Of a DNA stretch of 17,337 nt, positions 1 through 17,337 are shown piece after piece. Made by a program: the position numbers and the translations under genes. How positions within the stretch are numbered: the first letter of the stretch is position 1; each line of letters starts with the position of its first letter. The DNA comes from a virus (taxonomy: Duplodnaviria > Heunggongvirae > Uroviricota > Caudoviricetes), in the IMG/VR virus record IMGVR_UViG_2778261161_000005; one strand, written 5' to 3'. Under the pieces are notes generated by a model that worked only from the letters and a program-made list of their open reading frames with translations, was not told the origin of the DNA and searched no databases.

Positions 1-447
1 CATCTCTGTTGCCGGGATGCCTTCCAGTACAGGCCAGAAAGAGCCATCATCAAGCCCGAGATCGCGGCGTTCGGTTGCCAGCATGATAAGATCGGCATAT
101 TTCACGGGCGTACTCATAACTGGGGGTAACCCGTATTTCTCACGGATTACGGCGTCAATTTTTTCTTCCATCCGTTTATAGTCAGGAAGAAGGCGTTTCA
201 GTGGAGCGGGAATATCCTGGCAATACGCTTCTGTTGCATCATGCATTAACGCTTCAAAAGCAAATTCCTGCGGCACCAGCTGGCTGCAAAGCACCGCATG
301 TTGGGCGACACTGTAGAAGTGAGAAAGATGACCGGCAAAGCGGCAGATATTTGAAAGGGAAACCGCGATATCGTTAATCACGATGTCGTCTTTATTTATC
401 TTGTCATAATAAAAATGCTTCCCGGAAAAAGTTTTAATAAATGACAT
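1..447 (-). CDS. yfdR: HD-domain phosphohydrolase, YfdR-like (putative 5'-deoxynucleotidase); partial, 3' end runs off the window
   Basis: Minus-strand ATG at 445-447 preceded by GGAGAA SD; hand translation MSFIKTFSGKHFYYDKINKDD... stays open to position 1 and contains H..HD-type motifs (AQHAV, MHDATE). Sits directly downstream of the DUF2303 gene as in the K-12 CPS-53 yfdQ-yfdR order (from memory). Not in the ORF track because no stop lies in the window. Confidence 0.55.
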   Translation of the reverse strand, partial: MSFIKTFSGKHFYYDKINKDDIVINDIAVSLSNICRFAGHLSHFYSVAQHAVLCSQLVPQEFAFEALMHDATEAYCQDIPAPLKRLLPDYKRMEEKIDAVIREKYGLPPVMSTPVKYADLIMLATERRDLGLDDGSFWPVLEGIPATEM

Positions 448-574
448 TTTGTTCTCCACGTATATGCGCTGCACCGCGCTGAGTTTGGGTAAAAGGAAGC
501 CCTCACCATCCGGTGATTATTGAGTTAATTACGTTTCCATAAATGCCCCCGCAGGGGCATTTGCAGTAATGAAA

Positions 575-1399
575 TCAGGCGGTGAAAGTACCAATAAAGG
601 TTTCTACTTTGCTGTCTTTGAATTTCTCAACAAGCAGATCACGAAATTCGTTAGCCATATCTTCCTGCACCGCTTCCAGCTGAATAATGCGCAGAACCAG
701 TACAGGACGATCGCCAGTGATAATGCTGAGGCGTAATTTAAACGGACGTTCTTTCAGACCTTCAAACGGAACGCATTTAATTTCAAATGCCACTGGCATA
801 ATGTCTTTGGTCTTCGCTTCGACAGATTCCATCAGGGAGCGTTTGCCGCTGAAGTCATTATCTTCAAAATCAGCGGTCTGGTTTGCTTCAATCGTGATTT
901 TACGGACTGCCGCAGCTGCTTTTGTTGCCTGAATAGCGTCACCATTAGCATCAAAGCCCACAAGGTAGTCGGCCCAGTCTTCAATCCATTCTGCCAGTGA
1001 CTTCTGGGAGTTACGCTCGCCGTTAACAGACAACAGGGCAGAGAACGGTGCTGTCTTTTTCAGTTTGAGAGTGGCGGTGTTATCTGCGTGACCTGGTTCA
1101 TCAATAGTACCCAGGTTAAGTACACTGACGGCACGCATATTATCAGCATCGATAAAGCAGCGGGTGCCTTCATCTGCAAGATCTTTAGAATAACGGGTAA
1201 AGTCATCGATGCTGGCAGTGGAAAGCGCACCACGGAAACGGAAGCGATTTAAATTAAATTTTTCCAGATCATGAATGCGGAAATTCTCAGGCAATACCAC
1301 AGCATCGGCACCAATCTTACTGATAATTTCATTAACACCCTGAGCAGAAATAAGGGCATGGATTTGATTAATTGCGGTTGCGTCTAAGTTCTGAGACAT
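575..1399 (-). CDS. yfdQ: DUF2303-like prophage protein (YfdQ-like), 274 aa
   Basis: Long ORF from the six-frame track; the 274-aa length and position between a 120-aa ORF and an HD-domain gene match the CPS-53 yfdP-yfdQ-yfdR arrangement as I recall it. Confidence 0.6.
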
Positions 1400-1464
1400 A
1401 ATAAGTCCTCACTATATAAAGATATTCAGTGATGAGATAAATAATCAGTTAATTAAGAACGATA

Positions 1465-1827
1465 TTAATGACCTGCTGCGCGTAGTTTTCCGTCAGGTTC
1501 ACCGGCAAGAGTCAGTAATTGTCCCTGGTCTTCCTGCAGAATAGTCAGGCGACCACCGCGATTGACATACATCGGCGTTTCGGTGGTGTCTTCTTCGGAA
1601 ATTTTCCCGCGGTTAGTCGGGCGAACATATGAGAGTTTGTGTTTGATTTTCACACGGTTCTCATCAAATGGTTCGATTTCCAGGTTGAGTGAGACCTTAC
1701 CTTTGGTTTTCGTGTTCATCACACCGGAAGCGACTTCACTGAGAACTGCGCCGATTTTGGTTTCAAATACGCCGCCGTCCAGCTCCCCGATAAATGCCTG
1801 CACATCAGTACTGCGTTCGCTAGCCAT
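1465..1827 (-). CDS. small prophage protein, YfdP-like (120 aa); the track ORF 1465..2058 is trimmed to the ATG at 1825-1827
   Basis: The internal ATG (MASERSTDVQAF...) is preceded by GGAGCAGCAAA (SD GGAG). The upstream part of the track ORF is Cys/Arg-rich and lies inside the GC-rich noncoding stretch, so the longer start is unlikely. Confidence 0.55.
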   Translation of the reverse strand: MASERSTDVQAFIGELDGGVFETKIGAVLSEVASGVMNTKTKGKVSLNLEIEPFDENRVKIKHKLSYVRPTNRGKISEEDTTETPMYVNRGGRLTILQEDQGQLLTLAGEPDGKLRAAGH

Positions 1828-2423
1828 TTTGCTGCTCCTCATCATATCGACCCTGCAAGGTCGGTTGGTTTCTCCACAAAACAGAGAAGAACACCTGCGG
1901 TGGCAGCCGCCCGGATGGATTGGGTTATGAGCCCGTCGTCCGGTGATGCTCTTCTCTGTTTTGTAAAAAGAGCGGTACCAGCCGGAAGCAAGTGTACAAA
2001 CTGGTACCGCCAAAGCAGTGGCTGTTGTGGTGGGGTTGTCACTCAGGCGTATGGTCAACCTGACAATCCGGTGTCCTCAACGGGGAAAGAGTAACCCAGC
2101 CATACTTACCGCCGCGCCATTTCGCGGATGACCACAACGCTGAGAGCACTTAGCCAGTTACGGCACCACACTTTGTCGCGGCTCCATAAATGCCCTCATC
2201 GTTGCACCCTGGTCTCTTCCCAGGCGTCAAACCGGATCGCCACGCTGGTTAGGCGTCTTATCAGCATCATCATTGACTTGCACATTCCGGCTACCTGGTT
2301 TGTTTGCCCTAGCAAGGAGTGGATTGTCCCCTTTAACGTCCCCAGACCGCTAACGACGCATGTGCCATACGCCGTGTTACAACCAAATTTTGTTTGAATC
2401 TTGCCTGCCTCATGTTTCTTTTG

Positions 2424-2456
2424 GATACATTATGTATCTCATAGGTACATTGTCAA
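2424..2456 (-). promoter_or_regulatory. leftward sigma70-like promoter (pL-like) with overlapping operator palindrome
   Basis: On the minus strand: TTGACA (plus 2451-2456), 16-nt spacer, CATAAT (plus 2429-2434). The perfect palindrome GATACAT-T-ATGTATC (2424-2438) overlaps the -10. Confidence 0.45.
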
Positions 2457-2458
2457 GT

Positions 2459-2483
2459 ATAAAAAAACCTGCCGAAGCAGGTT
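2459..2483 (-). terminator. rho-independent terminator of the repressor gene
   Basis: Minus-strand hairpin AACCTGC-TTCG-GCAGGTT followed by a U-run (plus-strand A-run 2459-2467), 13 nt after the repressor stop codon. Confidence 0.6.
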
Positions 2484-2495
2484 CATAAATATTGA

Positions 2496-3170
2496 TTAGG
2501 CCTTTATTGTGTATCTTCTTGGTTTTCCCGAGAAAATCACTGTACCAATTATAGAGCAATTACCGTTAATCTTAATGTAAGGCTCAGGCCAGTTTGGGTT
2601 TAATGCTTTGAGATAACGCTGTGTTCCATCTTCTATCAATCGCTTGAAGGTGGTTTCGCCTGTATCGTGCATCAATGCAATAACGTCGTCACCGTGGCAG
2701 GCAGGGACTTCGGGATCAACAAAAATCATGTCTCCAGGGCGGTACTCATCAATCATTGAATCACCAATCACCCGCAAGATATAAGTCATTTCGCCACAGG
2801 GTACAGGGCAGGGATACGTTTCTGCTGTGCTCAAATCAACCTCAGAATAGCCAACTTCTTTCCATGCTCCGGCCTGTACCCATGATATGACAGGGACTAA
2901 CGTTATTTGTTTGTTAGTGATTGAAACATCAGGTTTTTTTGTGATGTTCGTTGTCTGGTGTTCTTGATCAAGCCATCCGACAGGCAGGTCGAAACATTTT
3001 TCGATGTGCCGTGCCATGCTGTCACCGATATTTTTAGTAGCGCCATCCCCCATAAACCTGCTGGTTTGGGTTGGCTCGCGATCAATCATGGTGGCAAAGG
3101 ATGAATTTCCGCCAACACCATCTCTCAGTTTTCTGGCGTTAGACCGCCGGATGTCATGGATTGTTTTCAT
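2496..3170 (-). CDS. prophage repressor, cI/LexA-like with C-terminal S24 peptidase domain (224 aa)
   Basis: C-terminal half carries the Ser (GDSM) and Lys (TFKRL) motifs of S24 self-cleaving repressors and a candidate Ala-Gly cleavage site (VQAGAW). Divergently arranged with a Cro-like gene. Confidence 0.8.
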   Translation of the reverse strand: MKTIHDIRRSNARKLRDGVGGNSSFATMIDREPTQTSRFMGDGATKNIGDSMARHIEKCFDLPVGWLDQEHQTTNITKKPDVSITNKQITLVPVISWVQAGAWKEVGYSEVDLSTAETYPCPVPCGEMTYILRVIGDSMIDEYRPGDMIFVDPEVPACHGDDVIALMHDTGETTFKRLIEDGTQRYLKALNPNWPEPYIKINGNCSIIGTVIFSGKPRRYTIKA

Positions 3171-3185
3171 AACGAAATTAAAACC

Positions 3186-3209
3186 TTTGTACCGATAAGG
3201 TACAAGTAC
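3186..3209. promoter_or_regulatory. operator-like overlapping palindromes in the repressor/cro divergent intergenic region
   Basis: TTGTACC-GATAA-GGTACAA (3186-3204) overlapping GGTAC-AA-GTACC (3198-3209); three GTAC cores spaced about 10 bp apart between the divergent repressor and cro starts. Confidence 0.45.
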
Positions 3210-3260
3210 CTTGAAGGTTCATTTCAATCATGTAATGTGTATACTGGAGGTACATATTGT

Positions 3261-3461
3261 ATGAAAGCGTATTGGGACTCTTTAACCAAAGAACAGCAGG
3301 GCGAGTTGGCCGGAAAAGTTGGCTCAACACCTGGCTACTTACGGCTGGTTTTCAATGGTTATAAAAAAGCCAGTTTTGTGCTGGCGAAAAAACTTGAGCA
3401 ATGCACGTCAGGTGCAATTACGAAATCTGACTTAAGACCGGATATCTACCGTGACATTTGA
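3261..3461 (+). CDS. Cro-like/YdaS-family small HTH regulator (66 aa)
   Basis: ATG at 3261 with GGAGG SD at 3246-3250; small protein with an HTH-like core (GELAGKVGSTPGYLRLV) and a C-terminal LRPDIY motif; divergent from the S24 repressor. The track ORF 3156..3461 is trimmed. Confidence 0.7.
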   Translation: MKAYWDSLTKEQQGELAGKVGSTPGYLRLVFNGYKKASFVLAKKLEQCTSGAITKSDLRPDIYRDI

Positions 3462-3550
3462 AGAGAAGTATGGCTCCCAACTGGAGCTGATATTTCGTTT
3501 TATCGATCGTGCGCTGGCAATTGGCGTACTGGCGTAAGTGGAGAACGAGC

Positions 3551-4303
3551 ATGAACCTTGAAGCCTTACCAAAATATTACTCCCCAAAATCTCCAAAATT
3601 GAGTGATGCCGCACCGGCGACAGGCTCAGGTGGTTTAACGATTACGGATGTGATGGCTGCGCAGGGGATGGTGCAGTCGAAAGCACCGCTTGGGTTTGCC
3701 TTATTCCTGGCAAAAGCTGGCGTTCAGGATCCTCAGTTTGCGATTGAAGGTCTGCTCAATTACGCGATGGCACTGGATAACCCGACATTGAACAAATTGA
3801 GTGAAGAAATCCGGTTACAGATCATCCCTTACCTTGTGAGTTTTGCCTTTGCTGATTATTCCAGGTCTGCGGCAAGTAAGGCTCGCTGTGAGCCTTGTGC
3901 TGGTACTGGATTTCATAATGTATTGCGCGAAGTGGTGAAATACTCCAGAAGCGGGGAGTCTGTTATCAAGGAAGAGTGGGTGAAGGAACTATGTCAGCAT
4001 TGTCATGGTAAGGGAGAAGTCAGCACAGCGTGCAGAGGGTGTAAGGGTAAAGGTATTGTCCTGGATGAAAAAAGGACCCGGCTTCATGGCGCGCCTGTTT
4101 ATAAGATTTGTGGGCGTTGCAATGGAAACCGGTTTAGTCGTTTACCAACGACACTGGCGCGGTGTCATGTCCAGAAGCTGGTACCAGACCTGACTGATTA
4201 TCAGTGGTACAAAGGATATGCAGATGTCATTGATAAACTGGTTACAAAGTGCTGGCAGGAAGAAGCATATGCTGAGGTGCAATTAAGAAAAGTGACGAGA
4301 TAA
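3551..4303 (+). CDS. quuQ: late-gene antitermination protein Q (QuuQ/QuuD-like, 250 aa)
   Basis: ATG at 3551 with GGAG SD; several Cys-x2-Cys pairs (CEPCAGTG, CQHCHGKG, CRGCKGKG, CGRCNGN) typical of phage-82-type Q proteins; immediately followed by a promoter plus terminator pair. The track ORF 3509..4303 is trimmed. Confidence 0.75.
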   Translation: MNLEALPKYYSPKSPKLSDAAPATGSGGLTITDVMAAQGMVQSKAPLGFALFLAKAGVQDPQFAIEGLLNYAMALDNPTLNKLSEEIRLQIIPYLVSFAFADYSRSAASKARCEPCAGTGFHNVLREVVKYSRSGESVIKEEWVKELCQHCHGKGEVSTACRGCKGKGIVLDEKRTRLHGAPVYKICGRCNGNRFSRLPTTLARCHVQKLVPDLTDYQWYKGYADVIDKLVTKCWQEEAYAEVQLRKVTR

Positions 4304-4334
4304 ATGATTTTCGCCGAAGATGGCGACGTAATGC

Positions 4335-4363
4335 TTGCATTTTTCAAAAAATATGGATAAAAT
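4335..4363 (+). promoter_or_regulatory. pR'-like late promoter
   Basis: TTGCAT (4335-4340), 17-nt spacer, TAAAAT (4358-4363), 32 bp downstream of the Q stop. Confidence 0.6.
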
Positions 4364-4408
4364 TTTTTCAACGATGGGCTTTATATACCCGACGTTAAGA
4401 AAAAGTAG

Positions 4409-4434
4409 AAAACCCGCTGATGAGCGGGTTTTTG
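4409..4434 (+). terminator. tR'-like rho-independent terminator
   Basis: Hairpin AACCCGC-TGATGA-GCGGGTT followed by TTTTT, about 45 nt downstream of the predicted pR' start site. Confidence 0.65.
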
Positions 4435-4718
4435 TGCTTTAAATAGGGTAATAGAGATGTTGAATCTCATTCCGGGATTCATGTTTGTTTACTTATTATT
4501 TATCGGGTGACTTTGCCTGATGTTTAAAATGTTTTCTTCCAGTACTATGTCCCTAGATACAATGAGTCTGCATATTACATTATTAGCAGAGCTATTACGG
4601 TCAAAGTACAGCATAAGCTTTTAAAGCCAATCAACCAGTCATCAAGACAGACGGGGTTATTCATGAAAACTCTCCATGTTTGATTCGATGGGGCCTGAAA
4701 TTAAAGCTTTAATATAGC

Positions 4719-4931
4719 TCATGAAAGGTAAACATTGGCAGCTGAAGGGCCACGCAGACCATTTATCCGGCAAAATTCCACGCGTAATCCGGTGGTAATT
4801 TCTTCTGCATCGCGGAGATTGAGCGCTGAAACATGAAGCTGGACATCGATACGACCATCGGATGGGGTGATAAGACCCTTGCCGCTTTTGCCGTCAAAGG
4901 TTTTGACAATTCCTGTCATTTTACGGGACAA
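4719..4931 (-). CDS. cspF: cold-shock-like protein CspF (70 aa)
   Basis: Translation [27 protein letters not shown]...[10 protein letters not shown] matches the CspF/CspH subfamily as recalled; divergent from cspB as in Qin. Confidence 0.85.
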
Positions 4932-5231
4932 AAAAATTCCTTAATACTGATAACTGGGCGCACTATACACACGTTCCTGAAGAAAGCTATAGTTTTTTGA
5001 TGGGGTTGAAGATGGCTGGATGTCTAAAATAAACATTGCTTCATATGTTCAACTATGCGTTAATGATTGCGTCGGTTTGAAGAACAGACGATATACGAAG
5101 TAGTTTACTAAAGCAGTTCTCATTTCAGGTGTTATTCACTTATTCCTTCTTTGAGTCTCTCCAATTAAGTACGAAGTCGTTTCTGTTATACAAGCCATTT
5201 ATGCCGAAAGGCTCAAGTTAAGGAATGTAGA

Positions 5232-5447
5232 ATGTCAAATAAAATGACTGGTTTAGTAAAATGGTTTAACGCTGATAAAGGTTTTGGCTTTATTTCTCCT
5301 GTTGATGGTAGTAAAGATGTGTTTGTGCATTTTTCTGCGATTCAGAATGATAATTTTCGAACCTTATTTGAAGGTCAAAAGGTTACCTTCTCTGTAGAGA
5401 GTGGTGCTAAAGGTCCTGCAGCAGCAAATGTCATAATTACTGATTAA
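5232..5447 (+). CDS. cspB: cold-shock protein CspB (71 aa)
   Basis: Translation [38 protein letters not shown]... carries the RNP1 (KGFGFI) and RNP2 (VFVHF) motifs; about 270 nt of upstream leader-length DNA as in cspA-family genes. Confidence 0.9.
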
Positions 5448-5728
5448 AATTCATAGTTTGTCTGTATACGATAACGAAGAAGGCTGATGCCTGAGTGGAG
5501 ATACAGACAGAGTGGTGAATATTGGATCTCTTTAATAAATAGTAAGGAGGTCCAATACATGAAACAATGGCCAGCATATTTGGCAATAACTTAATCAGGA
5601 AAAGTATGCTAACCATTGTGGTGAAGTGCAGGTTTGCTGCATGAATAGTTTTACAGCAGAAGCTAACTGCTGGCATAGCAAAACAAAGTGCGTAAGTGGA
5701 TGACTCCCACAAAAAGTACCACAATATT

Positions 5729-5752
5729 AAACCCGCTCAGGCGGGTTTTTTA
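5729..5752. terminator. rho-independent terminator, possibly bidirectional
   Basis: Hairpin AACCCGC-TCAG-GCGGG followed by TTTTTT on the plus strand and a shorter U-run on the minus strand; lies between the cspB region and the convergent minus-strand zinc-ribbon ORF. Confidence 0.55.
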
Positions 5753-5810
5753 TTATCTGCTTTAAATATGTTATTAAAATATAAAAAATACTTGTTACGA
5801 ATAAAATCAA

Positions 5811-6032
5811 TCAAGCTACAGCTTTAAGATTTGTCTGGAATACTTTGTTGCAATGAGGGCAGATCAAAAGGGCACCTTTTTGTACTCTTGAAAAACTGTG
5901 TTCTGACTCTTGGGTGCAGTTTGGGCAGGAACATTTAACGAGATAATTACGGCGTGATTTTGAGTCTTTACGTTCTGACATAGGCTTTTCCTGTATAAAT
6001 GGCCGTATACAGTACACTAAATATGAAAACAT
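5811..6032 (-). CDS. small basic zinc-ribbon protein (CxxC...CxxC), function unknown; the start may be the internal ATG at 5979-5981 (56 aa)
   Basis: Track ORF; two CxxC pairs (CPNC, CPHC) and a basic N-terminus (SERKDSKSRR). The internal ATG has a better SD (AGGAAA) than the first ATG. Confidence 0.45.
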   Translation of the reverse strand: MFSYLVYCIRPFIQEKPMSERKDSKSRRNYLVKCSCPNCTQESEHSFSRVQKGALLICPHCNKVFQTNLKAVA

Positions 6033-6199
6033 ATCTCGTATTATTATTTAATATATGATTTTCTTTTAAAATAATTACCCACATTTTTAATGTGTCTGTT
6101 TTTTAGCGCCGTTGAGAACAACGTTTGCTATAAAAACTAACCCATAGACTCCGATCTTTTCAAACATATTGCACCATCTGTGTACATCGGGGTGAGGAT

Positions 6200-6415
6200 A
6201 TGAAATCAATGGATAAGTTAACAACAGGTATCGCCTATGGCACATCGGCTGGTAATGCTGGTTTCTGGGCATTGCAGTTACTCGATAAAGTAACTCCGTC
6301 ACAGTGGGCTGCAATCGGTGTGCTGGGTAGTCTGGTTTTTGGCCTGCTGACGTATCTGACAAACCTTTATTTCAAGATTAAAGAAGACAGGCGTAAGGTT
6401 GCGAGAAGAGAGTAA
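6200..6415 (+). CDS. essQ: class II (phage-21 S-like) holin/pinholin with dual-start motif
   Basis: Translation [28 protein letters not shown]... is 71 aa with two hydrophobic segments and a charged C-terminus; the MKSM N-terminus gives two possible starts (Met1/Met4); lies directly upstream of the lysis genes. Confidence 0.85.
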
Positions 6416-6419
6416 TCCA

Positions 6420-6971
6420 ATGACACAAGACTATGAACTGGTTGTGAAAGGAGTCCGCAATTTTGAGAATAAAGTGGCGGTAACTGTAGCCTTACGGGAC
6501 AAAAAACGCTTTGACGGTGAAATTTTTGACCTGGACATCTCGCTGGACCGTGTTGAAGGTGCCGCGCTGGAGTTTTATGAGGCAGCAGCCAGAATGAGAA
6601 TCAGACAGGTATTCCTGGATGTTGCTGCCGGGTTATGTGTAGGGGATGAGCAGTCGCCGGAAAAGCGCCCCATAATTTTAGAGGCGCAGAATGTGTGGAT
6701 AACCTACAAAGGAAAGCTACCGGGAAGAATTACTGGTTCTCTGAAGACGCCACCGACGGCATTGCGGTCAGAAAAAGATGATATTGAATCGCCCATTGAA
6801 AAACTGGAGGGCAGCGTCGCTGATCTGAATAAAAAATTGTCGGTGCTGATCCCTTCTGAAGATGAAAAAAAACGCCGCGATGAGCAGTTTGCGGCGTTTT
6901 ACGATTATTGCATTGAAGTTACTCGCAGGAATTTTGTGAAGATTTTTGAGGAGGGTAAATCTCTTCAGTAA
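6420..6971 (+). CDS. YdfR-like (DUF1327) lysis-cassette protein with a long C-terminal extension
   Basis: ATG at 6420 (MTQDYELVVKGVRNFENK...) with its SD inside the holin 3' end; the N-terminal roughly 100 aa resemble YdfR as recalled. The track start at 6399 is a TTG inside the holin gene. Confidence 0.6.
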   Translation: MTQDYELVVKGVRNFENKVAVTVALRDKKRFDGEIFDLDISLDRVEGAALEFYEAAARMRIRQVFLDVAAGLCVGDEQSPEKRPIILEAQNVWITYKGKLPGRITGSLKTPPTALRSEKDDIESPIEKLEGSVADLNKKLSVLIPSEDEKKRRDEQFAAFYDYCIEVTRRNFVKIFEEGKSLQ

Positions 6972-7179
6972 GCTTAATGGCGGACGCTGCAATTAATTCA
7001 GGAAGGTCCGCAAGGTCATCTGTCAGTGGATATGATGAAAAATCGGCGGCAGTTCTGTTAAGAAGCGCTTTAACTAATTCCTTTTCCTTCTCCGGCAACA
7101 AGTTGATTAGAGCTACGACTGCTTGCCTGAGTGCGATTAAATCAGCAAAAGTTTGTTTTGGTAGATTTGTGTAATCCAT
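6919..7179 (-). CDS. hypothetical small helical protein, antisense within the lysis cassette (about 86 aa)
   Basis: Minus-strand ORF with ATG at 7177-7179 preceded by AGAGGTG SD; the track start at 7185 is a GTG. It occupies the 320-bp gap between the YdfR-like gene and the lysozyme gene and overlaps the YdfR-like 3' end by about 50 nt. No recognisable family. Confidence 0.35.
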   Translation of the reverse strand: MDYTNLPKQTFADLIALRQAVVALINLLPEKEKELVKALLNRTAADFSSYPLTDDLADLPELIAASAIKLTEEIYPPQKSSQNSCE

Positions 7180-7292
7180 AGTCACCTCTGTGTTTATCAG
7201 ATTGACATCCTCCTCCCGCCAGTGCCCATCACTGGTGAGGTAAGATTTAACATATCCGGGGATTTGAAGCCGATAAATCCTGATAAATATCC

Positions 7293-8320
<1,028 letters not shown>

Positions 8321-8683
8321 ATTAATATTAAATCGGATTATTTTTAGCGCTGAATGTGAAATTTAAATAAAAAGGACTCTTCCATGAGTCAAAATCCTTG
8401 AAATCTTAAGGGTAAGATAAAAGGTCATTAGACAGAATGACACGTTTTATTAATAAATAAAGCTATTGTTTCATTCGTGTGTTTTTCTTTACAAAAGTAA
8501 TCCTTGCTATGGTTGGTTAATCATGCGTTAATGGTGTTCTGGTTTGTTACAAAATTATCTGAAGCAGTCATTGTTATAATTTTATTATTTGTACCTCTTG
8601 AGATCTCCTTGTTGGTTTTTCTCTCTGATATTTTTTTTCGGACCATTCTGCCCAAGGGCTAACTTCTTCAAAAGGTAATAATG

Positions 8684-8896
8684 ATGTCTAACAAAATGAC
8701 TGGTTTAGTGAAATGGTTTAACCCTGAAAAAGGTTTTGGTTTCATCACGCCGAAAGATGGTAGCAAAGATGTGTTTGTCCATTTCTCAGTTATTCAGAGC
8801 AACGATTTCAAAACGTTAACTGAGAATCAGGAAGTCGAATTTGGTATTGAGAACGGACCTAAAGGCCCCGCGGCTGTTCATGTAGTGGCACTTTGA
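8684..8896 (+). CDS. cspI: cold-shock protein CspI (70 aa)
   Basis: Translation [45 protein letters not shown]... matches CspI as recalled; about 360 nt of upstream leader-length DNA. The track starts one codon earlier (8681). Confidence 0.9.
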
Positions 8897-9100
8897 GGTA
8901 GAAAATATTACAAACCATATTCACTTTAGATGCCCGTGTTGCCATGGTTCTCAGTATAGAACATCATCTTTTGATGTTTCTGACAGGAATCCTTTCGGGG
9001 CAAAATGTATCTTTTGTAAATCAATGATGATTACATTTGATAATATTTCACAATACTTAAATGTTAGCCGTCTGTCGTTAGATTTAAGAAAGTGAAAATG

Positions 9101-9124
9101 AAGGCTCCTTCGGGAGCTTTTTTG
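9101..9124 (+). terminator. rho-independent terminator downstream of cspI
   Basis: Hairpin GCTCC-TTCG-GGAGC followed by TTTTTT. Confidence 0.6.
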
Positions 9125-9167
9125 CTTAGTGTCTAGTCGATGGATACTCACATATTACGGTAACATT

Positions 9168-9398
9168 ATGAAAAAAATAATAGTTTTTTTTAACTCTGAA
9201 CCAGCAATGGTAGTGCCAGTGATGACCGGAGTTAACACCATCATGCGTGAATATCCAAATGGCGAAACAACACACCTCACTGTAATGGCTGCAGGGTTTC
9301 CATCTCTGACCGGAGATCATAAAGTCATTTATGTAGCAGCGGATCGACATGTAACTTCAGAAGAAATTCTGGAAGCAGCAATGAGACTCTTGAATTGA
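9168..9398 (+). CDS. small prophage protein, possibly YnfN-like (about 76 aa)
   Basis: Internal ATG (MKKIIVFFNSEPAMVV...) of track ORF 9129..9398; position between cspI and gnsB as in Qin; family assignment is from memory only. Confidence 0.4.
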   Translation: MKKIIVFFNSEPAMVVPVMTGVNTIMREYPNGETTHLTVMAAGFPSLTGDHKVIYVAADRHVTSEEILEAAMRLLN

Positions 9399-9567
9399 TT
9401 TGATTCTAATGCATTGATAATAAATGATAATCATCTTTATCTGTTTGTGTGAAATTTAGACCGTCGTATGTTGATTATTGCGATGTTTCATCTTATCTTT
9501 TATACGTTTGCTCCATATAATTGACACTACTGTGTACCAGGAAAGTCATAACAGACTAAAAGAGGAA

Positions 9568-9744
9568 ATGATGAACATTGAAGAGTTAAAAACAAAAACA
9601 GAAGCAGATATTTCTGAATATATAACAAAAAAAATCATTGAGCTTAAGAAAAAGACCGGGAAAGAAGTTACCAGTATCCAGTTTACTGCACGGGAAAAAA
9701 TGACTGGTCTTGAAAGCTATGATATCAAGATTGATTTAATCTAG
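9568..9744 (+). CDS. gnsB: GnsA/GnsB-family small protein (58 aa)
   Basis: Translation MMNIEELKTKTEADISEYITKKIIELKKKTGKEVTSIQFTAREKMTGLESYDIKIDLI with AAGAGGAA SD upstream; matches the Gns family as recalled. The track ORF 9478..9744 is trimmed. Confidence 0.75.
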   Translation: MMNIEELKTKTEADISEYITKKIIELKKKTGKEVTSIQFTAREKMTGLESYDIKIDLI

Positions 9745-9805
9745 TATGTTTATAGTATTAGCATCAATTTCTCATCAGATGCTATTCAACAATACAAATT
9801 ACCCA

Positions 9806-9832
9806 TAAACCTCGTTTTTACGGGGTTTTGTT
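9806..9832 (+). terminator. probable terminator downstream of gnsB
   Basis: Hairpin AACCTCG-TTTTTA-CGGGGTT (one G-U pair) followed by a T-rich run. Confidence 0.35.
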
Positions 9833-10039
9833 ATATTTAAACATTACCGAATAGATATAAATCTCGATTGTCGATGGTATTGGTTGTGTGACAATACCTA
9901 GTCTTTCCGGTATGCCTGAAGAGAATACAAACGACAGATTATGTAAGGGAAACGCGCTGAAACTTTCACTCTTTCATGCTGAGTGATTTGACGTTATATT
10001 TTTAGCCGCAAGTGAAGAGCAAACGCATGGAGCGACAAA

Positions 10040-10246
10040 ATGCATAAAGATCAATACACTGATGCCCCCTCCCAGGAGCAGGTTCGTGTAAAAACTATGC
10101 TTAATAGCACCATTTCGATGGGTTACCCGGATGTTGTAATTGCATGTATAGAACATCAAGTATCTCTGGAAGCATTCAGGGCAATTGAGGCCGCGTTAGT
10201 AAAGCACGATAAGAATACGAAGGATTATTCCCTGGTGGTTGACTGA
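10040..10246 (+). CDS. hypothetical small prophage protein (68 aa)
   Basis: Track ORF in the position occupied by ynfO/ydfO in Qin; I do not recognise the sequence. Confidence 0.35.
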
Positions 10247-10589
10247 TCACCATAACTGCTAACCATTCTGACCATTTCACAAGTGACAGAGTCAATATCG
10301 TATTCTGTCACTGTCAGGCTAATACAGTACTGCAATTCAACTACAGCAATGCCTCGTATTTAGGTGAATTTACAATATCGTCCAGTTCGGATGCCGGCTG
10401 CATTTCTGAAGATAAGGCATTTCGGTTCGCGTATTTTCCCCTCATGCTCGTCAGTCCTGCGCGTAGTAAGAAACAGGACACTCACACTAATTTGTGTGGG
10501 CATGCTGTGATGTCCTTCTGAATTATCCCCACGCCATTATGTAAAGCTCTGTTTCAGATGCTCGTCACGGTTGTCAGGCTGTCGGGTCC

Positions 10590-10630
10590 TCCCTGGGGGG
10601 GGCCCTGCCACGGGGCGGGAGCGTCGCGGA
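10590..10630. other. cos-like site (putative cosN) in a GC-rich island upstream of the small terminase gene
   Basis: ACGGGGCGGGAGCGTCGCGG (10610-10629) resembles the lambda cohesive-end region (…ACGGGGCGGCGACCTCGCGG…) as recalled. It lies about 170 bp upstream of the Nu1-like gene and is followed by inverted repeats ATGTCGAA / TTCGACAT (10712-10741) in the position of cosB. Confidence 0.45.
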
Positions 10631-10798
10631 AAAAGGCTAGTTTTTGCATTTTTATCGGCCACCATCATCTTTGCATCTTATTGATTATTAATGGTTGTTT
10701 GTTTTTTGTATGTCGAATTGAGTGTTTTTTGTTCGACATCGAACGCGTTTTCTTAAAGTTGTTCGCACGATGCATGTTTAAAGCTCTCCGGAGGAAAT

Positions 10799-11290
10799 AT
10801 GGATCATGAGTTGAAAAACCTGGTGCTGAATATTAATCAACTGGCGGCTTTATCTGGTCTGCACCGCCAGACTGTCGTGGCAAGACTGAAAAACATTCGT
10901 CCCGCTGGTGGACATGACAAACTCAAGCTATACCGGTTGACCGATATTCTGACTGAATTTATGGGGTTACCACCGCCGGTTGCTGAGGGCGAAATGGATC
11001 CACATGAACGCAAAGCCTGGTATCAGTCTGAACGTGAGCGTCTTAAGTTCGAACAGGAAACGGCACAACTCATTCCGGCCAGTGATGTCAGACGGGAGTT
11101 TGCCATCTGGGCAAAAGCGGTCGTGCAGGTGCTGGAGACATTACCGGATATTCTGGAACGTGACTGCGGCCTGCAGCCTGCCGCTGTGAGCCGTGTTCAG
11201 TCCATTATTGATGATCTGCGCGATCAGATAGCCCTGCGGGTGACCGAAGCAGGTGCGGATGATGAGGAGGAATTACAGCAGGAGGAGTAA
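10799..11290 (+). CDS. terminase small subunit, Nu1-like (NohA/NohD-type), 163 aa
   Basis: N-terminal winged-HTH pattern (NINQLAALSGLHRQTVVARLKN...GG...KLYRLTDIL) like lambda Nu1; acidic C-terminus; preceded by the cos-like site; stop overlaps the next ATG. Confidence 0.65.
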   Translation: MDHELKNLVLNINQLAALSGLHRQTVVARLKNIRPAGGHDKLKLYRLTDILTEFMGLPPPVAEGEMDPHERKAWYQSERERLKFEQETAQLIPASDVRREFAIWAKAVVQVLETLPDILERDCGLQPAAVSRVQSIIDDLRDQIALRVTEAGADDEEELQQEE

Positions 11291-11790
11291 TGCTGAATCA
11301 GGAAACCGCAAAGGCAGCACGAACCGATTCAGGTTATATCCTTCGCGCACCGAGACGAATGCGGGTTGCTGATGCCGTTGCTCAGTATATGCGGGTGAAA
11401 GACCGGGTGAATAACGCGTTATGGCGTGACTCGCCAGGTCCCGGCTATGTGCATTTCCCTGACTGGCTGGGGAGCTGGTTTTACGACGAACTGACGTATG
11501 AAGAGCGGAGCAGTGACGGGAAATGGAGTAAGCCGGGTCGCGGTGCCAACGAAGCTTTTGACCTGATGGTGTATGCCGAGGCTCTGGTCATTCTGCATGG
11601 ATACGAAAAGATCCGCTGGCCGGATGCACCGGAGTGGGCGAGCCGGGAAACCTGGCTGGAGTGTGTCCCGGACAGTACCGAACCGTCACCCACACCGGAA
11701 CCGGTATCCACGCCTGTTAAAAAACAAAAACGGAAGAAAACAGTAACTGACGATGTTAACCCCTGGCTGACTTCCGGAGGATGGTTATGA
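11290..11790 (+). pseudogene. terminase large subunit remnant (gpA-like C-terminal region only, 166 codons)
   Basis: Translation aligns to the C-terminal roughly 130 aa of lambda gpA as recalled (PGYVHFP vs PGAVHFP; RGANEAFDLMVYAEAL vs RRNEALDCFVYALAAL). The ATPase and nuclease core domains expected in a roughly 640-aa protein are absent. Confidence 0.6.
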
Positions 11791-11999
11791 ACCAGAATGA
11801 TATCGAAGCCATGATTCAGCGTTATACGGAAGCTGAAATGGCGGTGCTGGACGGAAAATCCGTCACCTTTAATGGTCAGCAGATGACCATGGAAAACTTA
11901 TCTGAGATCCGGCAGGGACGGCAGGAGTGGGAGCGCCGCCTTGCGGCTCTGATTACACGACGACGGGGGCATCCCGGGTACCGGCTTGCGAGGTTCTGA
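11787..11999 (+). CDS. head-to-tail joining protein, gpW-like (about 70 aa)
   Basis: Small ORF between terminase and portal, as lambda W is; ATG at 11787 with GGAGG upstream; stop overlaps the portal ATG (TGATG). Confidence 0.6.
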   Translation: MNQNDIEAMIQRYTEAEMAVLDGKSVTFNGQQMTMENLSEIRQGRQEWERRLAALITRRRGHPGYRLARF

Positions 12000-13507
12000 T
12001 GGCAATTCTTGATGATGTGATTGGCGTTTTTTCACCAGGATGGAAAGCGGCAAGGCTGCGTTCCCGTGCGGTGATCCAGGCTTATGAGGCCGTAAAAACG
12101 ACGCGGACACACAAAGCCCGGCGGGAAAACCGAACTGCCGACCAGTTAAGCCAGTACGGGGCCGTGTCGTTACGTGAGCAGGCCCGTTACCTTGATAACA
12201 ACCACGATCTGGTCATTGGTGTATTTGACAAGCTGGAAGAACGGGTGGTGGGGAAAAACGGGATTATTGTCGAGCCACATCCGGTATTACGCAATGGGGC
12301 CATTGCCCGTGATCTGGCAGCGGAGATACGCACCCGATGGAGTGAATGGTCTGTCAGTCCGGAAGTCACCGGGCAGTTTACCCGTCCGATGCTGGAACGT
12401 CTGATGTTGCGTACCTGGCTGCGCGATGGTGAGGTGTTTGCCCAGATGGTTTCCGGGCGCATAAACAGCCTGACGCCTTCTGCCGGTGTTCATTTCTGGC
12501 TGGAGGCGCTCGAGCCGGACTTTATTCCCATGACCAGTGATGAGAGCAACAGGCTGAATCAGGGCGTGTTTGTTGATGACTGGGGGCGTCCCGAAAAATA
12601 TCTGGTGTATAAAAGCCGTCCCGTATCCGGACGGCAGATGGAAACCAAAGAAGTGGATGCAGAGCGAATGCTGCATCTTAAATTTGTTCGCCGTCTGCAC
12701 CAGATGCGCGGGACGTCTTTGTTGTCCGGTGTGCTGATCCGCCTCAGTGCCCTGAAAGAGTATGAAGATTCTGAGCTGACTGCAGCAAGGATCGCCGCTG
12801 CTCTGGGGATGTACATCCGGAAAGGCGACGGGCAGAGCTATGAACCGGATGGTAATGGCAGCAAGGATAAGGAACGCGAGCTTACCATTCAGCCAGGCAT
12901 TATTTACGACGATCTGAAACCCGGCGAAGAAATCGGAATGGTGAAGTCGGATCGCCCCAATCCTAATCTTGAAACTTTTCGTAATGGTCAGTTGCGTGCC
13001 GTGGCGGCGGGCAGTCGTCTGAGTTTTTCCAGTACAGCGCGCAACTATAACGGCACTTACAGCGCCCAGCGTCAGGAGCTGGTTGAATCCACTGATGGCT
13101 ACCTGATCCTGCAGGACTGGTTTATTGGTGCCGTCACCCGCCCGATGTATCGTGCCTGGCTGAAACAGGCTGTGGCATCCGGTGTTATCAGGCTACCCCG
13201 CGATCTTGATCGTTCTTCACTGTATACCGCGGTGTATTCCGGACCGGTGATGCCGTGGATTGACCCTGTTAAGGAGGCTGAGGCCTGGAAAATTCAGATT
13301 CGTGGTGGAGCGGCGACAGAATCAGACTGGGTACGTGCAGGTGGTCGTAATCCGGATGATGTCAAACGTCGGCGCAAGGCCGAAATTGATGAAAACCGCA
13401 AGCTGGATCTGGTATTTGATACCGATCCGGCCAGTGATAAAGGAGGCAGCAGTGCCGCAACGAAACGACAGGAGCCGCAGCACACCGACGACCAGTCCGA
13501 AGAATAA
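11999..13507 (+). CDS. portal protein (lambda gpB family), about 502 aa
   Basis: Long ORF directly after the W-like gene, with the size and position expected for a lambda-like portal; ATG at 11999 ([11 protein letters not shown]...). The track ORF 11927..13507 is trimmed. Confidence 0.7.
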
Positions 13508-13520
13508 TTCCTGGTTCAGG

Positions 13521-15461
13521 ATGCAGGCAGGTCACCAGAGTGACGCGGATATTTATATTTATGACGAGATTGGTTTCTGGGGTGTTACGGCGAAGCAGTT
13601 TATCAGTGATCTGAATGCACTGGGCGATATCACCCACATTAAGGGACGCTTCCTGAACAACATTAACGCGGTCAGTAAAACAGACTTTGCTGATAAGCGT
13701 GGTATGCGTTATGTGCGGGTTAACGCTCCTGCAGGTGCAACATCTGGAAAATATTACCCTGTTGTTGTTATGCGTTCTGCTGGCTCAGTAAGCGAACTGG
13801 CATCAAGGGTCATTATCACCACGGCAACGCGAACCGCAGGCGATCCGATGAATAACTGCGAGTTTAACGGATTTGTTATGCCTGGTGGCTGGACTGACAG
13901 GGGGCGTTATGCTTATGGAATGTTCTGGCAATATCAAAACAATGAACGAGCCATCCACTCAATAATGATGAGTAATAAGGGCGATGATTTGCGCTCTGTG
14001 TTCTATGTTGATGGCGCTGCTTTCCCTGTTTTTGCGTTTATCGAAGATGGCCTGTCAATATCCGCACCTGGTGCTGATCTCGTTGTTAATGATACGACCT
14101 ATAAGTTTGGGGCAACAAATCCAGCGACTGAATGTATCGCGGCGGACGTTATCCTTGATTTTAAGAGTGGGCGTGGTTTTTATGAGTCTCATTCGTTAAT
14201 CGTTAACGATAACTTGTCGTGCAAAAAACTTTTTGCCACAGACGAAATTGTAGCGCGTGGTGGTAATCAGATTCGAATGATAGGTGGGGAGTATGGTGCA
14301 TTATGGCGTAATGATGGCGCTAAAACTTACCTGCTGCTTACCAATCAAGGTGATGTTTATGGTGGCTGGAATACATTAAGACCGTTTGCTATTGATAACG
14401 CAACCGGCGAGCTGGTTATTGGAACCAAACTGTCCGCAAGTCTGAACGGTAATGCATTAACAGCAACAAAGCTGCAAACGCCAAGACGGGTTTCTGGTGT
14501 TGAGTTTGATGGTTCCAAAGATATTACTTTAACCGCCGCGCATGTGGCTGCTTTTGCCAGAAGAGCAACGGATACGTATGCCGATGCGGATGGGGGCGTT
14601 CCATGGAATGCCGAATCAGGCGCTTACAATGTCACCCGCTCTGGCGACAGCTATATTCTGGTTAACTTCTATACCGGAGTCGGAAGTTGCCGGACCCTGC
14701 AGATGAAGGCGCATTACAGAAATGGAGGTCTGTTCTACCGTTCCTCAAGAGATGGCTATGGTTTTGAGGAAGACTGGGCAGAAGTTTATACCTCGAAAAA
14801 TCTTCCACCAGAAAGCTACCCAGTCGGCGCACCAATCCCGTGGCCATCAGATACCGTTCCGTCTGGTTATGCCCTGATGCAGGGGCAGACTTTTGACAAA
14901 TCTGCATACCCGAAACTTGCAGCCGCTTATCCGTCAGGCGTGATCCCTGATATGCGTAGCTGGACGATTAAGGGCAAACCTGCCAGTGGTCGGGCCGTAT
15001 TGTCTCAGGAACAGGACGGCATTAAATCGCACACCCACAGCGCCAGCGCATCCAGTACGGATTTGGGGACGAAAACCACATCGTCGTTTGATTACGGCAC
15101 TAAATCCACGAATAACACCGGGGCGCATACGCACAGTGTGAGCGGTACAGCCGCAAGTGCCGGAAACCATACTCATAGTGTCACAGGCGCATCAGCAGTC
15201 AGCCAGTGGTCACAAAATGGGTCAGTACATAAGGTAGTGTCTGCGGCCAGTGTGAATACAAGTGCTGCAGGAGCGCACACTCATAGTGTTAGCGGCACAG
15301 CCGCATCTGCAGGTGCTCACGCACATACTGTCGGTATTGGTGCTCATACGCACTCTGTTGCGATTGGCTCACATGGACACACTATCACCGTTAACGCTGC
15401 TGGTAACGCGGAAAACACCGTCAAAAACATCGCATTTAACTACATTGTGAGGCTTGCATAA
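13521..15461 (+). CDS. chimeric ORF: ClpP-type prohead protease N-terminus (about 37 aa) fused in frame to a side tail fibre protein (Stf-like)
   Basis: First ATG after the portal stop; the N-terminus [28 protein letters not shown] matches the start of ClpP-family prohead proteases, then the sequence switches to tail-fibre-like repeats and ends with a tail-collar region ([42 protein letters not shown]), His-rich HxH repeats and [11 protein letters not shown]. The track ORF 13260..15461 overlaps the portal in another frame. Confidence 0.65.
15121..15313 (+). repeat. imperfect direct repeats of about 43 bp within the stf 3' region
   Basis: GGGCGCATACGCACAGTGTGAGCGGTACAGCCGCAAGTGCCGG (15121-15163) and GGAGCGCACACTCATAGTGTTAGCGGCACAGCCGCATCTGCAGG (15270-15313), both encoding [15 protein letters not shown]. 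Confidence 0.7.
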
Positions 15462-16036
15462 TGGCATTCAGAATGAGTGAACAACCACGGACCATAAAAA
15501 TTTATAATCTGCTGGCCGGAACTAATGAATTTATTGGTGAAGGTGACGCATATATTCCGCCTCATACAGGTCTGCCAGCAAACAGTACCGATATTGCACC
15601 GCCAGATATTCCGGCAGGCTTCGTGGCTGTTTTCAACAGTGATGAGGCATCGTGGCATCTCGTTGAAGACCATCGGGGTAAAACGGTTTATGACGTAGCG
15701 TCAGGGGACGCGTTATTTATTTCTGAACTCGGTCCGTTACCGGAAAATGTTACCTGGTTATCGCCGGAAGGGGAGTTTCAGAAGTGGAACGGCACAGCCT
15801 GGGTGAAAGATGCAGAAGCAGAAAAACTGTTCCGGATCCGGGAGGCGGAAGAAACAAAAAACAGCCTGATGCAGGTAGCCAGTGAGCATATTGCGCCGCT
15901 TCAGGATGCTGCAGATCTGGAAATTGCAACGGAGGAAGAAATCTCGTTGCTGGAAGCATGGAAAAAGTATCGGGTATTGCTGAACCGTGTTGATACGTCA
16001 ACTGCACAGGATATTGAATGGCCAGCACTGCCGTAG
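15461..16036 (+). CDS. tail fibre assembly protein (Tfa), 191 aa
   Basis: Translation [39 protein letters not shown]... matches TfaQ/TfaR-type proteins as recalled; start overlaps the stf stop (TAATG). Confidence 0.85.
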
Positions 16037-16133
16037 GGTAAAACATATAAATTCTATAATTAGATGTATCTTTCCATTTACGGCAAGGAAGGGGGCTTGG
16101 AAGACGTAAAGCATCTCACACCAAGATTATTTT

Positions 16134-16724
16134 TTATATGTCAGGTGTCTGAAGTTTTGCTTTGGCTCTTAAAATGGTTTGCCGCGAGGTTTTGAATTCC
16201 CGGGCAATGGCACTTATACTTACACCTGACTTAATCCGTTCGAATACCACCTGTTTCTGTTCTTCATTTAACACAGGTGGTCGACCAAAACGTTTCCCTG
16301 CGCCCCGGGCTCTTACTATCCCGGAATGAGTGCGTTCAAGTAAAAGGTCTCGTTCAAATTCAGCGACTGCTGAAATTACTTGCATCATCATTTTTCCTGT
16401 TGGACTGGTCAGGTCAATGCCCCCCAATGCTAAGCAATGCACTCTGATACCTGTTTCGGTCAGTTGTTCCACTGTTTTCCTGATATCCATTGCATTACAA
16501 CCAAGGCGATCCAGTTTTGTCACAATCAATTGATCACCACATTTCAGGCGAGCAAGCAACCGGTTAAAACCAGGACGCTCACTGGTTGCTGCTGAGCCGC
16601 TAATGTGTTCTTCGATTATTTGCTGAGGTTTGATTTTAAAACCTGCACTTTCGATTTCCCGGCGTTGATTTTCGGTGGTCTGATCCAGCGTTGATATCCG
16701 ACAGTAAGCAAAAATTCGAGACAT
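16134..16724 (-). CDS. serine recombinase (resolvase/DNA-invertase family), 196 aa
   Basis: N-terminal catalytic motif [10 protein letters not shown] with the serine nucleophile, and a C-terminal HTH; sits in the position of pin in Rac/Qin-type prophages but is not close to canonical Pin/Gin/Hin by eye. Confidence 0.8.
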
Positions 16725-17103
16725 AGTGAGACTCTATACGAAATTGGTGTACATATCATAATGCATATCCAAAAATTATTTCGCTTATTATTGTACATAT
16801 TTGTATGTATACGTTCGAAAATAAACGAATTCGGATGCAGTCCCGTAATTTTGGTGTAACCAAAAATCGATTTTTTGAAAAATGGCTTTAACTCGGTTTG
16901 TTTTTCGAACTCCGGGCGGACTCGAGGAAGACGAATAATAGTGTTGTATGTTATTTCAACCAGATTTTAAGTTGTTTGGTCGTGGAAAAGTGGAGCAAAA
17001 TGTTGTTAAAGTGGAAAAATGGTAAAAAAAGTAGGTTGTTGCGGAATAACGTAGTTGTTGATATTTTTTTAATGCATTGAAAAATTATTTTTCAGGGGGG
17101 GTA

Positions 17104-17337
17104 TTACACTTTACCATTTAAATTTTGGTTGTCTTTAAGAACTGATATCGCTGTTTGTAATAATTCTTTGTTATCCAGCCATGACTTTTTCTTTATGTTT
17201 CCTTCAATGTAATCAAGCAATGTTCTGGTATTGATAGGTCTTCCCTGTTTTGCTACTTCCACGACAGCATCTCCCAGGATAATTCTGACTTCAGGAAGCT
17301 GCGCAGGGAACCACTTTAGGGTGTCTTTTGATTTCAT
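17104..17337 (-). CDS. ydfK: YdfK/YnaE-family small prophage protein (77 aa)
   Basis: Translation MKSKDTLKWFPAQLPEVRIILGDAVVEVAKQGRPINTRTLLDYIEG... matches YdfK/YnaE as recalled; the start codon is the last three bases of the window. Confidence 0.75.
   Translation of the reverse strand: MKSKDTLKWFPAQLPEVRIILGDAVVEVAKQGRPINTRTLLDYIEGNIKKKSWLDNKELLQTAISVLKDNQNLNGKV

Follow-up and report, generated by a model that had tools for sequence, protein, structure and literature searches.

In two prophages of Escherichia coli K-12, Qin and DLP12, a single deletion joins a packaging or head gene to the 3' part of a tail fibre gene or of tfa. The Qin layout is nohA-stfQ-tfaQ-pinQ-ydfK, in which nohA adjoins a 320-amino-acid (aa) remnant of stfQ, and that of DLP12 is nohD-aaaD-tfaD, in which codon 103 of the terminase gene TerL (aaaD) adjoins tfaD. 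A deletion of the same kind is described here for a 17,337-nt stretch of viral DNA (IMG/VR record IMGVR_UViG_2778261161_000005, hereafter the window). This 17.3-kb stretch covers the right-hand two-thirds of a lambdoid, Qin-like prophage located at prfC, and in it a single open reading frame (ORF) begins as a prohead protease/capsid gene and ends as a side tail fibre gene, stf. Tfa, Pin and YdfK are kept in Qin as in the window; PinQ is 99% identical between the two and the Stf tip 76% identical. In Qin, however, the small terminase gene forms the left side of an out-of-frame junction. The window differs from both Qin and DLP12 in having a protease/capsid left partner, an in-frame junction and a native strong start, and in keeping the portal and adaptor genes.

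Three further systems invite comparison. The e14 prophage carries StfE2, a chimeric fibre protein formed through PinQ/PinE inversion that has been reported to block adsorption of phage T2 (Kirigo et al., 2025; PMC12529663); it is the precedent for a role of such remnants at the level of the host. Like StfE2, the hybrid of the window is a chimeric side tail fibre of a cryptic prophage encoded next to Tfa and a Pin invertase. StfE2 arises reversibly, by Pin inversion between 16-bp inverted repeats in two opposed e14 stf genes (PMC12529663), whereas the chimera of the window comes from an irreversible deletion and starts with residues that are not from a fibre, and the locus has neither pix sites nor another stf; it is therefore not a member of the StfE2 system. 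Late genes of E. coli lambdoid prophages, the ClpP protease gene among them, are also interrupted by HE-PICI satellites, which are integrase-bearing elements that insert at defined att sites such as C:CLP_protease:110 (Tommasini, Mageeney and Williams, 2023; PMC10111431). Neither the window junction nor the TerL deletion site discussed below is among the 14 listed sites, however, and no satellite is present. Finally, the last 216 aa of the hybrid, with their His-x-His repeats and with the Tfa gene next to them, resemble the T4 gp37 tip (2XGF) and the lambda Stf/Tfa pair, but the proximal half of the fibre and the domain that attaches it to the tail or baseplate are missing.

The hybrid gene and its parents

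The hybrid ORF occupies positions 13452 to 15461 on the plus strand (669 aa, GTG start, TAA stop); its translation is found as an exact protein in NCBI, and the reading frame is free of stops from 13260 through 15461. A preliminary description of the window, made from the DNA letters and a list of ORFs, had recognized an in-frame protease/tail-fibre chimera, and this is borne out: the 5' part is 100% identical to a protease/capsid gene and the 3' part 99.9% identical to stf. Its weak start and its 646-aa product do not hold. Translation is predicted to begin not at ATG 13521 but at GTG 13452, a strong start with the Shine-Dalgarno sequence AGGAGG 5 nt upstream (13441 to 13446, plus strand). 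This ribosome-binding site is that of the protease/capsid gene and now serves the hybrid, which gains 23 residues to reach 669 aa. The start falls inside the 3' end of the portal gene; in intact relatives the protease gene likewise starts 55 nt ahead of the portal stop, at the equivalent of GTG 13452. The NCBI annotation of the 669-aa product uses the same start, and a look-up of NCBI proteins returned no record of the 646-aa version.

The parent genes were identified by comparison with an intact prophage at prfC in E. coli GPEC1222 (locus L003) and by megablast against 5426 complete E. coli genomes. Prophages in these genomes are 99.7–100% identical to window positions 1 to 13642, and the same genomes carry tail fibre genes 99.8% identical to the window from 13626 onward. 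The left parent (L003 22831–24858, 675 aa) is annotated as a 'ClpP-like prohead protease/major capsid protein fusion protein', with Pfam domains CLP_protease at aa 31–191 and Phage_capsid_4 at aa 377–672; the protease named earlier as left partner is thus correct, with the addition that part of the capsid gene itself is the partner. The right parent is stf (L003 37620–40973, 1117 aa). Window positions 13452 to 13642 (residues 1–63 plus 2 nt, plus strand) are 100% identical to L003 22831–23021, and positions 13643 to 15461 (Stf residues 512–1117, plus strand) are 99.9% identical to L003 39155–40973. On this comparison the chimera is not a chance reading frame: each half has a near-identical counterpart gene in intact relatives, and the two counterparts are 16 kb from each other. 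In GPEC1222 and in near-identical prophages these halves stand in separate genes, with 16,133 bp between them in GPEC1222, the prophage that was mapped, and these intact relatives do not have the continuous gene.

Alignment of the window with L003 gives four colinear blocks and hence three deletions, of 5412, 1602 and 16,133 bp, the first two of which are not in the preliminary description. The largest spans codon 64 of the protease/capsid gene to codon 512 of stf. It preserves the frame, since 16,133 is 2 modulo 3 and equals the offset of 2 modulo 3 between the frames of the two genes. The lost block, which included the tail tube gene, ran from the rest of the protease/capsid gene through DUF2190, the head-tail connector genes, U, V, the G/T chaperones, the tape measure gene, M, L, K, I, J and Lom to codon 511 of stf. 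The proposed loss of the intervening genes, including the rest of the protease/capsid gene, the tail tube and the tape measure, is thereby confirmed against GPEC1222, except that the 'baseplate' genes of that proposal are, in this siphovirus, the tail-tip genes M, L, K, I and J.

A three-way comparison of window and parents places the deletion junction at 13640 to 13642 (plus strand), a 3-bp microhomology, TAA, common to both parents. A switch near 13630, after LGDIT, had been proposed; the switch is real, and it lies slightly further on, after LGDITHI. From 13626 to 13642, a stretch that includes the TAA, the two parents match each other imperfectly and with gaps. The left parent reads CACATTAA and, past the break, TCTCCAT (in longer form TCTCCATATTAATTCACCGGGTGGC), encoding THI NLHINSPGG, and the right parent reads CCCGATAA and, past the break, GGGACGC (in longer form GGGACGCTTCC); across the junction the window reads CACATTAAGGGACGC. 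The flanks are 99.9–100% identical to the intact prophage, with complete identity over 10.2 kb.

The protein bears out both origins. The first 63 residues, compared alone with PHROGs, match PHROG 133 'head maturation protease' (E=4.9e-21, residues 15–63) and also PHROG 2976 and PHROG 94. The likeness to head maturation proteases thus stands, over 63 residues rather than the roughly 37 codons first allotted to it. Pfam CLP_protease gave no match on the whole hybrid or on the first 63 aa alone, a piece too short for Pfam. Of the ClpP domain, 161 aa long in the parent, only aa 31–63 survive, the deletion beginning just ahead of the INSPGG motif, so that the protease part contains no catalytic residues and no complete ClpP fold. 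Residues 58–669 belong to tail fibre family PHROG 295 (E=1e-161), with Pfam domains Gp34_trimer, gp37_C, Collar and Phage_fiber, and the last 216 aa match the receptor-binding tip structure of T4 gp37 (2XGF) with E=4e-88. The tail-attachment domain PF08400 phage_tail_N (aa 1–134 of the parent) is gone, while the Stf shaft, the receptor-binding tip and the downstream Tfa gene are all present. The tip itself (14811 to 15458), a homologue of the gp37 needle, carries repeated His-x-His motifs; compared with the K-12 StfQ tip, the sub-terminal part of the fibre differs in an indel-rich variable stretch.

Origin and fate of the hybrid

The exact 669-aa protein is recorded in NCBI (EOT7756931.1 and others; UPI001FCE578F) on seven draft E. 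coli contigs, under the labels 'tail fiber protein' or 'phage tail protein'. The same protein with the same neighbours on seven contigs means that the hybrid is real and clonal. A short-read chimeric join across a repeat can be given practically no credence: although the hybrid has so far been seen only in draft assemblies, the seven contigs are 50–200 kb long with the same neighbours throughout, and a 3-bp overlap is far too short to mislead an assembler. In addition, each of the remaining two deletions in the contig, both of them clean, has its own database entry, one as the 166-aa TerL remnant (WP_274539543.1) and one as an altered cro-like protein that is also on record. A junction-spanning match would have ranked first among the 5426 complete genomes, and the best match there was a different junction. 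The exact 40-nt junction pattern was absent from a set of one genome per GTDB species and from the JGI metagenomes, both of which are too sparse for a strain-level variant. Since no difference from the intact prophage is seen over 10.2 kb of flank (100% identity) and the best complete-genome match is a different junction, the deletions are very recent and confined to a small lineage.

The hybrid is very probably a recent deletion scar left by illegitimate recombination, and probably inert. One spontaneous microhomology-mediated deletion in the lambdoid prophage beside prfC would have removed the 16,133 bp, joining codon 63/64 of the protease/capsid gene to stf codon 512 at the common TAA, with the frames matching by chance (one in three). 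All junctions in this prophage show 1–6 bp of microhomology and no recombinase-type sites, and the same is true of the decayed relatives L001, L006 and L007; the 3-bp microhomology, the lack of a recombinase-type site and the similar junctions in relatives together form a signature of illegitimate recombination. DNA secondary structure at the junction was unremarkable in both parents (z-scores +0.3 and +0.7). As a control, residues 1–67 of the intact protease were used as a query; about a dozen truncated or fused ORFs came up, with breakpoints scattered at aa 29, 36, 41, 45, 58, 59, 61, 63 and about 75, and the left end of the deletion is therefore not a preferred site.

An independent protease-stf junction was found in a dusA-site prophage of E. 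coli 01G17CRGN001. It joins L003 22955 to 39229, displaced by 66 bp and 78 bp from the ends of the window junction, and it is out of frame, which fits a one-in-three chance of frame preservation. In that prophage (L001 6373–6377, NZ_CM148329.1) protease codon 41/42 is joined to a point in stf that lies 78 bp beyond the right breakpoint of the window, with GGTT as microhomology; the truncated product is P0134, and the prophage has four or five other deletions.

A site-specific origin, through an HE-PICI satellite integrase acting at its ClpP-gene site or through Pin acting on quasi-sites, is extremely unlikely, even though such satellites do insert into lambdoid prophages at C:CLP_protease:110 and elsewhere in the late genes (PMC10111431) and a pin gene lies 0.7 kb downstream. 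The junction falls at about position 48 of the CLP_protease profile and not at 110, the att identity block ATGATGATCCAT is missing and satellite genes are absent. With no listed site, no att block and no integrase-bearing insert, the satellite version is largely refuted. For Pin, the adjacent recombinase is present, but the inverted pix sites are not: no copy of the pix site TTGGTTTGGGAGAAGG was found with up to 3 mismatches, suitable inverted repeats were absent from 13000 to 17337, where only one stf end and one tfa occur, and breakpoints in the protease gene are scattered.

The product of the deletion would consist of 63 protease residues with no catalytic residue, followed by the fibre shaft and a gp37-like tip with no tail-attaching domain. 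It would inherit the strong ribosome-binding site of the protease gene and its place in a Q-dependent late operon. Three features suggest that it could be translated whenever that operon is transcribed: the Shine-Dalgarno sequence is a consensus one, the start overlaps the portal gene, and the ORF lies in the late operon of a prophage whose Q gene is intact. Virions cannot be formed, because the capsid, the tail and most of TerL are gone. The hybrid is most likely a functionless remnant, serving at most as a reservoir of tail fibre sequence for recombination with incoming phages.

Several features weigh against inertness. Beside its consensus Shine-Dalgarno sequence the hybrid keeps a complete gp37-like tip, the Tfa chaperone and PinQ, and a block of phage adsorption has been reported for chimeric Stf remnants in cryptic prophages (PMC12529663). 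Both gene-internal deletions are in frame (one in nine by chance), a possible hint that polar effects on the genes downstream are selected against. Lack of function, moreover, cannot be shown from sequence, and because the flanks are identical to the intact form, too little time has passed for a signature of selection either way.

These features raise the question whether the hybrid has been exapted, that is, expressed from the protease signals and folded by Tfa into a soluble trimer with an active gp37-like tip. Such a trimer might cover a receptor in the outer membrane and keep T-even-like or lambdoid phages from adsorbing, or it might leave the cell at SOS-induced lysis. The native GTG with its strong Shine-Dalgarno sequence, the intact Q, holin, endolysin and Rz genes upstream and Tfa downstream, the strong match of the tip to the T4 receptor-binding domain, a PinQ 99% identical to that of K-12 and the T2 adsorption block reported for the chimeric StfE2 of e14 (PMC12529663) all speak for exaptation. 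Nevertheless, it is distinctly improbable. The pix inverted repeats and an invertible segment are lacking, and PADLOC defence models gave no match. The hybrid is limited to seven contigs, and its flanks do not differ from those of the intact prophage, which gives no sign of selection; the right ends of comparable deletions are distributed across the late region and are not enriched in stf. The fusion is cytoplasmic, and no export signal is evident, although no test was aimed at one. The narrower proposal, that on SOS induction the fusion would be trimerized by Tfa and then occupy the receptor or be released at lysis, is very improbable; the fusion would be driven by the strong translation start of the protease gene, in a prophage that now runs from repressor to cro-like gene to Q to late genes. 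If true, a deletion would here have created an analogue of the StfE2 adsorption block. No evidence of function was found, and the deletion scar, probably inert, is the reading preferred here.

A recurrent deletion end in TerL

The second gene-internal deletion lies in TerL, whose remnant occupies 11290 to 11790 on the plus strand. An in-frame loss of 1602 bp has shortened the protein from 700 to 166 aa, joining residues 1–36 to 571–700. The junction, with TG as microhomology, is at 11396 to 11397 (plus strand), and its left end falls between codons 36 and 37, that is, between L003 19174 and 19175. The left end thus lies directly after GCTCAGTATATGCGGGTG (window 11397), which ends in GCGGGTG; across the site the intact sequence reads GCTCAGTATATGCGGGTG followed by CCCATGGGGGCCGGGAAC.

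The same left end, to the nucleotide, is found in UR21/11-869, where it is joined to stf, in ETEC4079, where it is joined to gpJ, and in an IMG/VR contig, where it is joined to TerL nt 989. A search with TerL residues 1–40 returned 56 short ORFs, about 30 of which are identical through residue 36 and then continue with differing tails; only two or three diverge at any other codon. Twelve tails could be mapped to the intact prophage, and 11 of the 12 diverge at this site, all on the same strand and rightward. Their targets are TerL, portal, protease/capsid, DUF2190, U, tape measure, J, Lom and stf, and one deletion runs past the prophage end to dusA. Within the late region the right ends scatter across 0.9 to more than 24 kb, in prophages at several chromosomal sites. 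In 10 of 13 right-hand partners TG stands immediately 5' of the break, and two have the longer matches TGCCC and GCGGGTG. No such pile-up of breakpoints was seen in the control protease gene. In IMG/VR the site is intact in 63 copies; the left side is kept at a single junction, and junctions with the right side alone do not occur. As judged from these alignments, about 30 independent deletions elsewhere share the window's TerL left breakpoint, which is a recurrent, one-sided and nucleotide-precise hot spot.

The pattern looks like a fixed 3' end, GGGTG-3', annealing by its terminal bases. A site-specific nick in the top strand, or replication arrest followed by microhomology-primed restart, fits best. 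Bierne, Ehrlich and Michel reportedly described, in 1991, deletion hot spots at replication arrest sites (terB). Like those hot spots, the TerL site has one fixed end, a variable other end and a terminal microhomology of a few bases; unlike them, it has no Ter-like sequence that is visible by eye.

Other candidate causes were considered and set aside. Cleavage at cos does not account for the site, as the cos-equivalent position, between 10612 and 10613, is 784 bp further left; a cosQ-like GGGTCCT stands near it, at 10584 to 10590. A hairpin or cruciform at the hot spot was not significant (z from -0.9 to +0.2), and a type I-E CRISPR self-targeting spacer in ATG-PAM register was absent from the 5426 genomes. 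The listed HE-PICI sites include no GpA-type TerL site. A Chi sequence, GCTGGTGG, lies 36 bp to the right, and its position does not predict the break. By eye, EcoKI, NcoI, Dam/MutH and Vsr sites do not coincide with the hot spot, and no pix-like site fits it. In the lambda-type TerL of K-12 DLP12 (aaaD) the break is at codon 103 and not at the equivalent position. A literature search for a described hot spot in TerL found nothing.

Two further observations were made around the site. Just to its right, at L003 19175–19190, which the window has lost, database TerL fragments P0048–P0060 are frameshifted in or next to the run of five G in CCCATGGGGGCCGGG; these frameshifts may represent a second mutational hot spot inactivating TerL, or homopolymer sequencing errors. 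In a Qin-site prophage (L008 10129–12359, GCA_036909995.1) that shares its hot-spot junction with L009, two minus-strand genes of 309 and 212 aa with no Pfam match lie between the TerL stub and a truncated stf.

Remaining genes and wider meaning

The third deletion is in the early region. Its junction is at 3447 to 3451 (plus strand), where L003 5817–11228 is missing, and the 5412 bp lost carried ymfL, ash, replication-type, PerC, RusA and KilA-N genes and most of a DUF968 gene. The Q gene now stands directly after the cro-like gene, and the last three residues of the cro-like protein are altered. Repressor cleavage might therefore switch on Q and the intact holin/lysozyme/Rz cassette without replication; if so, the rewired prophage could be an SOS-triggered lysis module.

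The window opens with early genes of the yfdQ/yfdP type, followed by a LexA-family (cI-like) repressor gene at 2496 to 3170 on the minus strand and the cro-like gene, of the YdaS family, with the Q antiterminator gene after it. Between the cro-like gene and the terminase genes lie Q, cspF, cspB, the holin, lysozyme (endolysin) and Rz genes, cspI and gnsB. Host-type cargo typical of Qin is interspersed among the lysis genes at 4700 to 10250 (cspF, cspB, cspI, ymcF, ynfN, gnsB and ynfU), all of it identical to the intact relative. The probable cos region spans 10584 to 10624 and includes the cosQ-like motif, a run of eight G and a lambda-like cohesive-end sequence, GGGGCGGGAGCG, that begins at 10613; the records of phages cdtI, Tritos and mEp460_4F5 start or stop at, or within 5 nt of, the point between 10612 and 10613.

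Among the plus-strand genes that follow, the candidate small terminase subunit gene (10799 to 11290; Pfam DUF1441, E=4.6e-44) is intact, as are the gpW-like head-tail adaptor gene (11781 to 11999; PHROG 118, E=1.4e-37) and the portal gene of the lambda gpB family (11999 to 13507; Pfam Phage_portal_2, E=6.5e-82). The portal protein has 502 aa as in relatives; its DNA is 100% identical to L003 21378–22886, and the gene is also called in L004. Downstream of the hybrid, the start of the intact Tfa chaperone gene (15461 to 16036, plus strand; Pfam Caudo_TAP, E=2.1e-43) overlaps the hybrid's stop, and its protein is the WP_000885593.1 of intact relatives. A PinQ-type serine invertase gene follows on the minus strand (16134 to 16724; Pfam Resolvase and HTH_7), identical to K-12 PinQ at 194 of 196 residues. 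In a draft genome with the same arrangement, ydfK, dinI and prfC lie 3' of the invertase gene. Regulatory, lysis and packaging genes are thus kept, and capsid and tail genes are deleted relative to the GPEC1222 prophage at prfC, as in a defective prophage of the Qin type.

The chimera is, as far as its sequence and that of its relatives tell, an ordinary recent product of prophage decay. It is a well-mapped case, with parents still identical to an intact relative, in which the database label 'tail fiber protein' misleads, and chimeric pseudogenes of this kind can pass as tail fibre genes in annotation. The hybrid also joins the few fibre remnants of cryptic prophages that are candidates for adsorption blocking. 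The TerL hot spot matters more than the chimera. If it is what it appears to be, a recurrent start at one TerL nucleotide in a widespread E. coli prophage family would point to a specific event, such as a nick, a replication arrest or the action of an unrecognized nuclease or recombinase, and not to random loss. Part of prophage decay would then not be random, and would proceed through a nucleotide-precise, one-sided deletion process at TerL.

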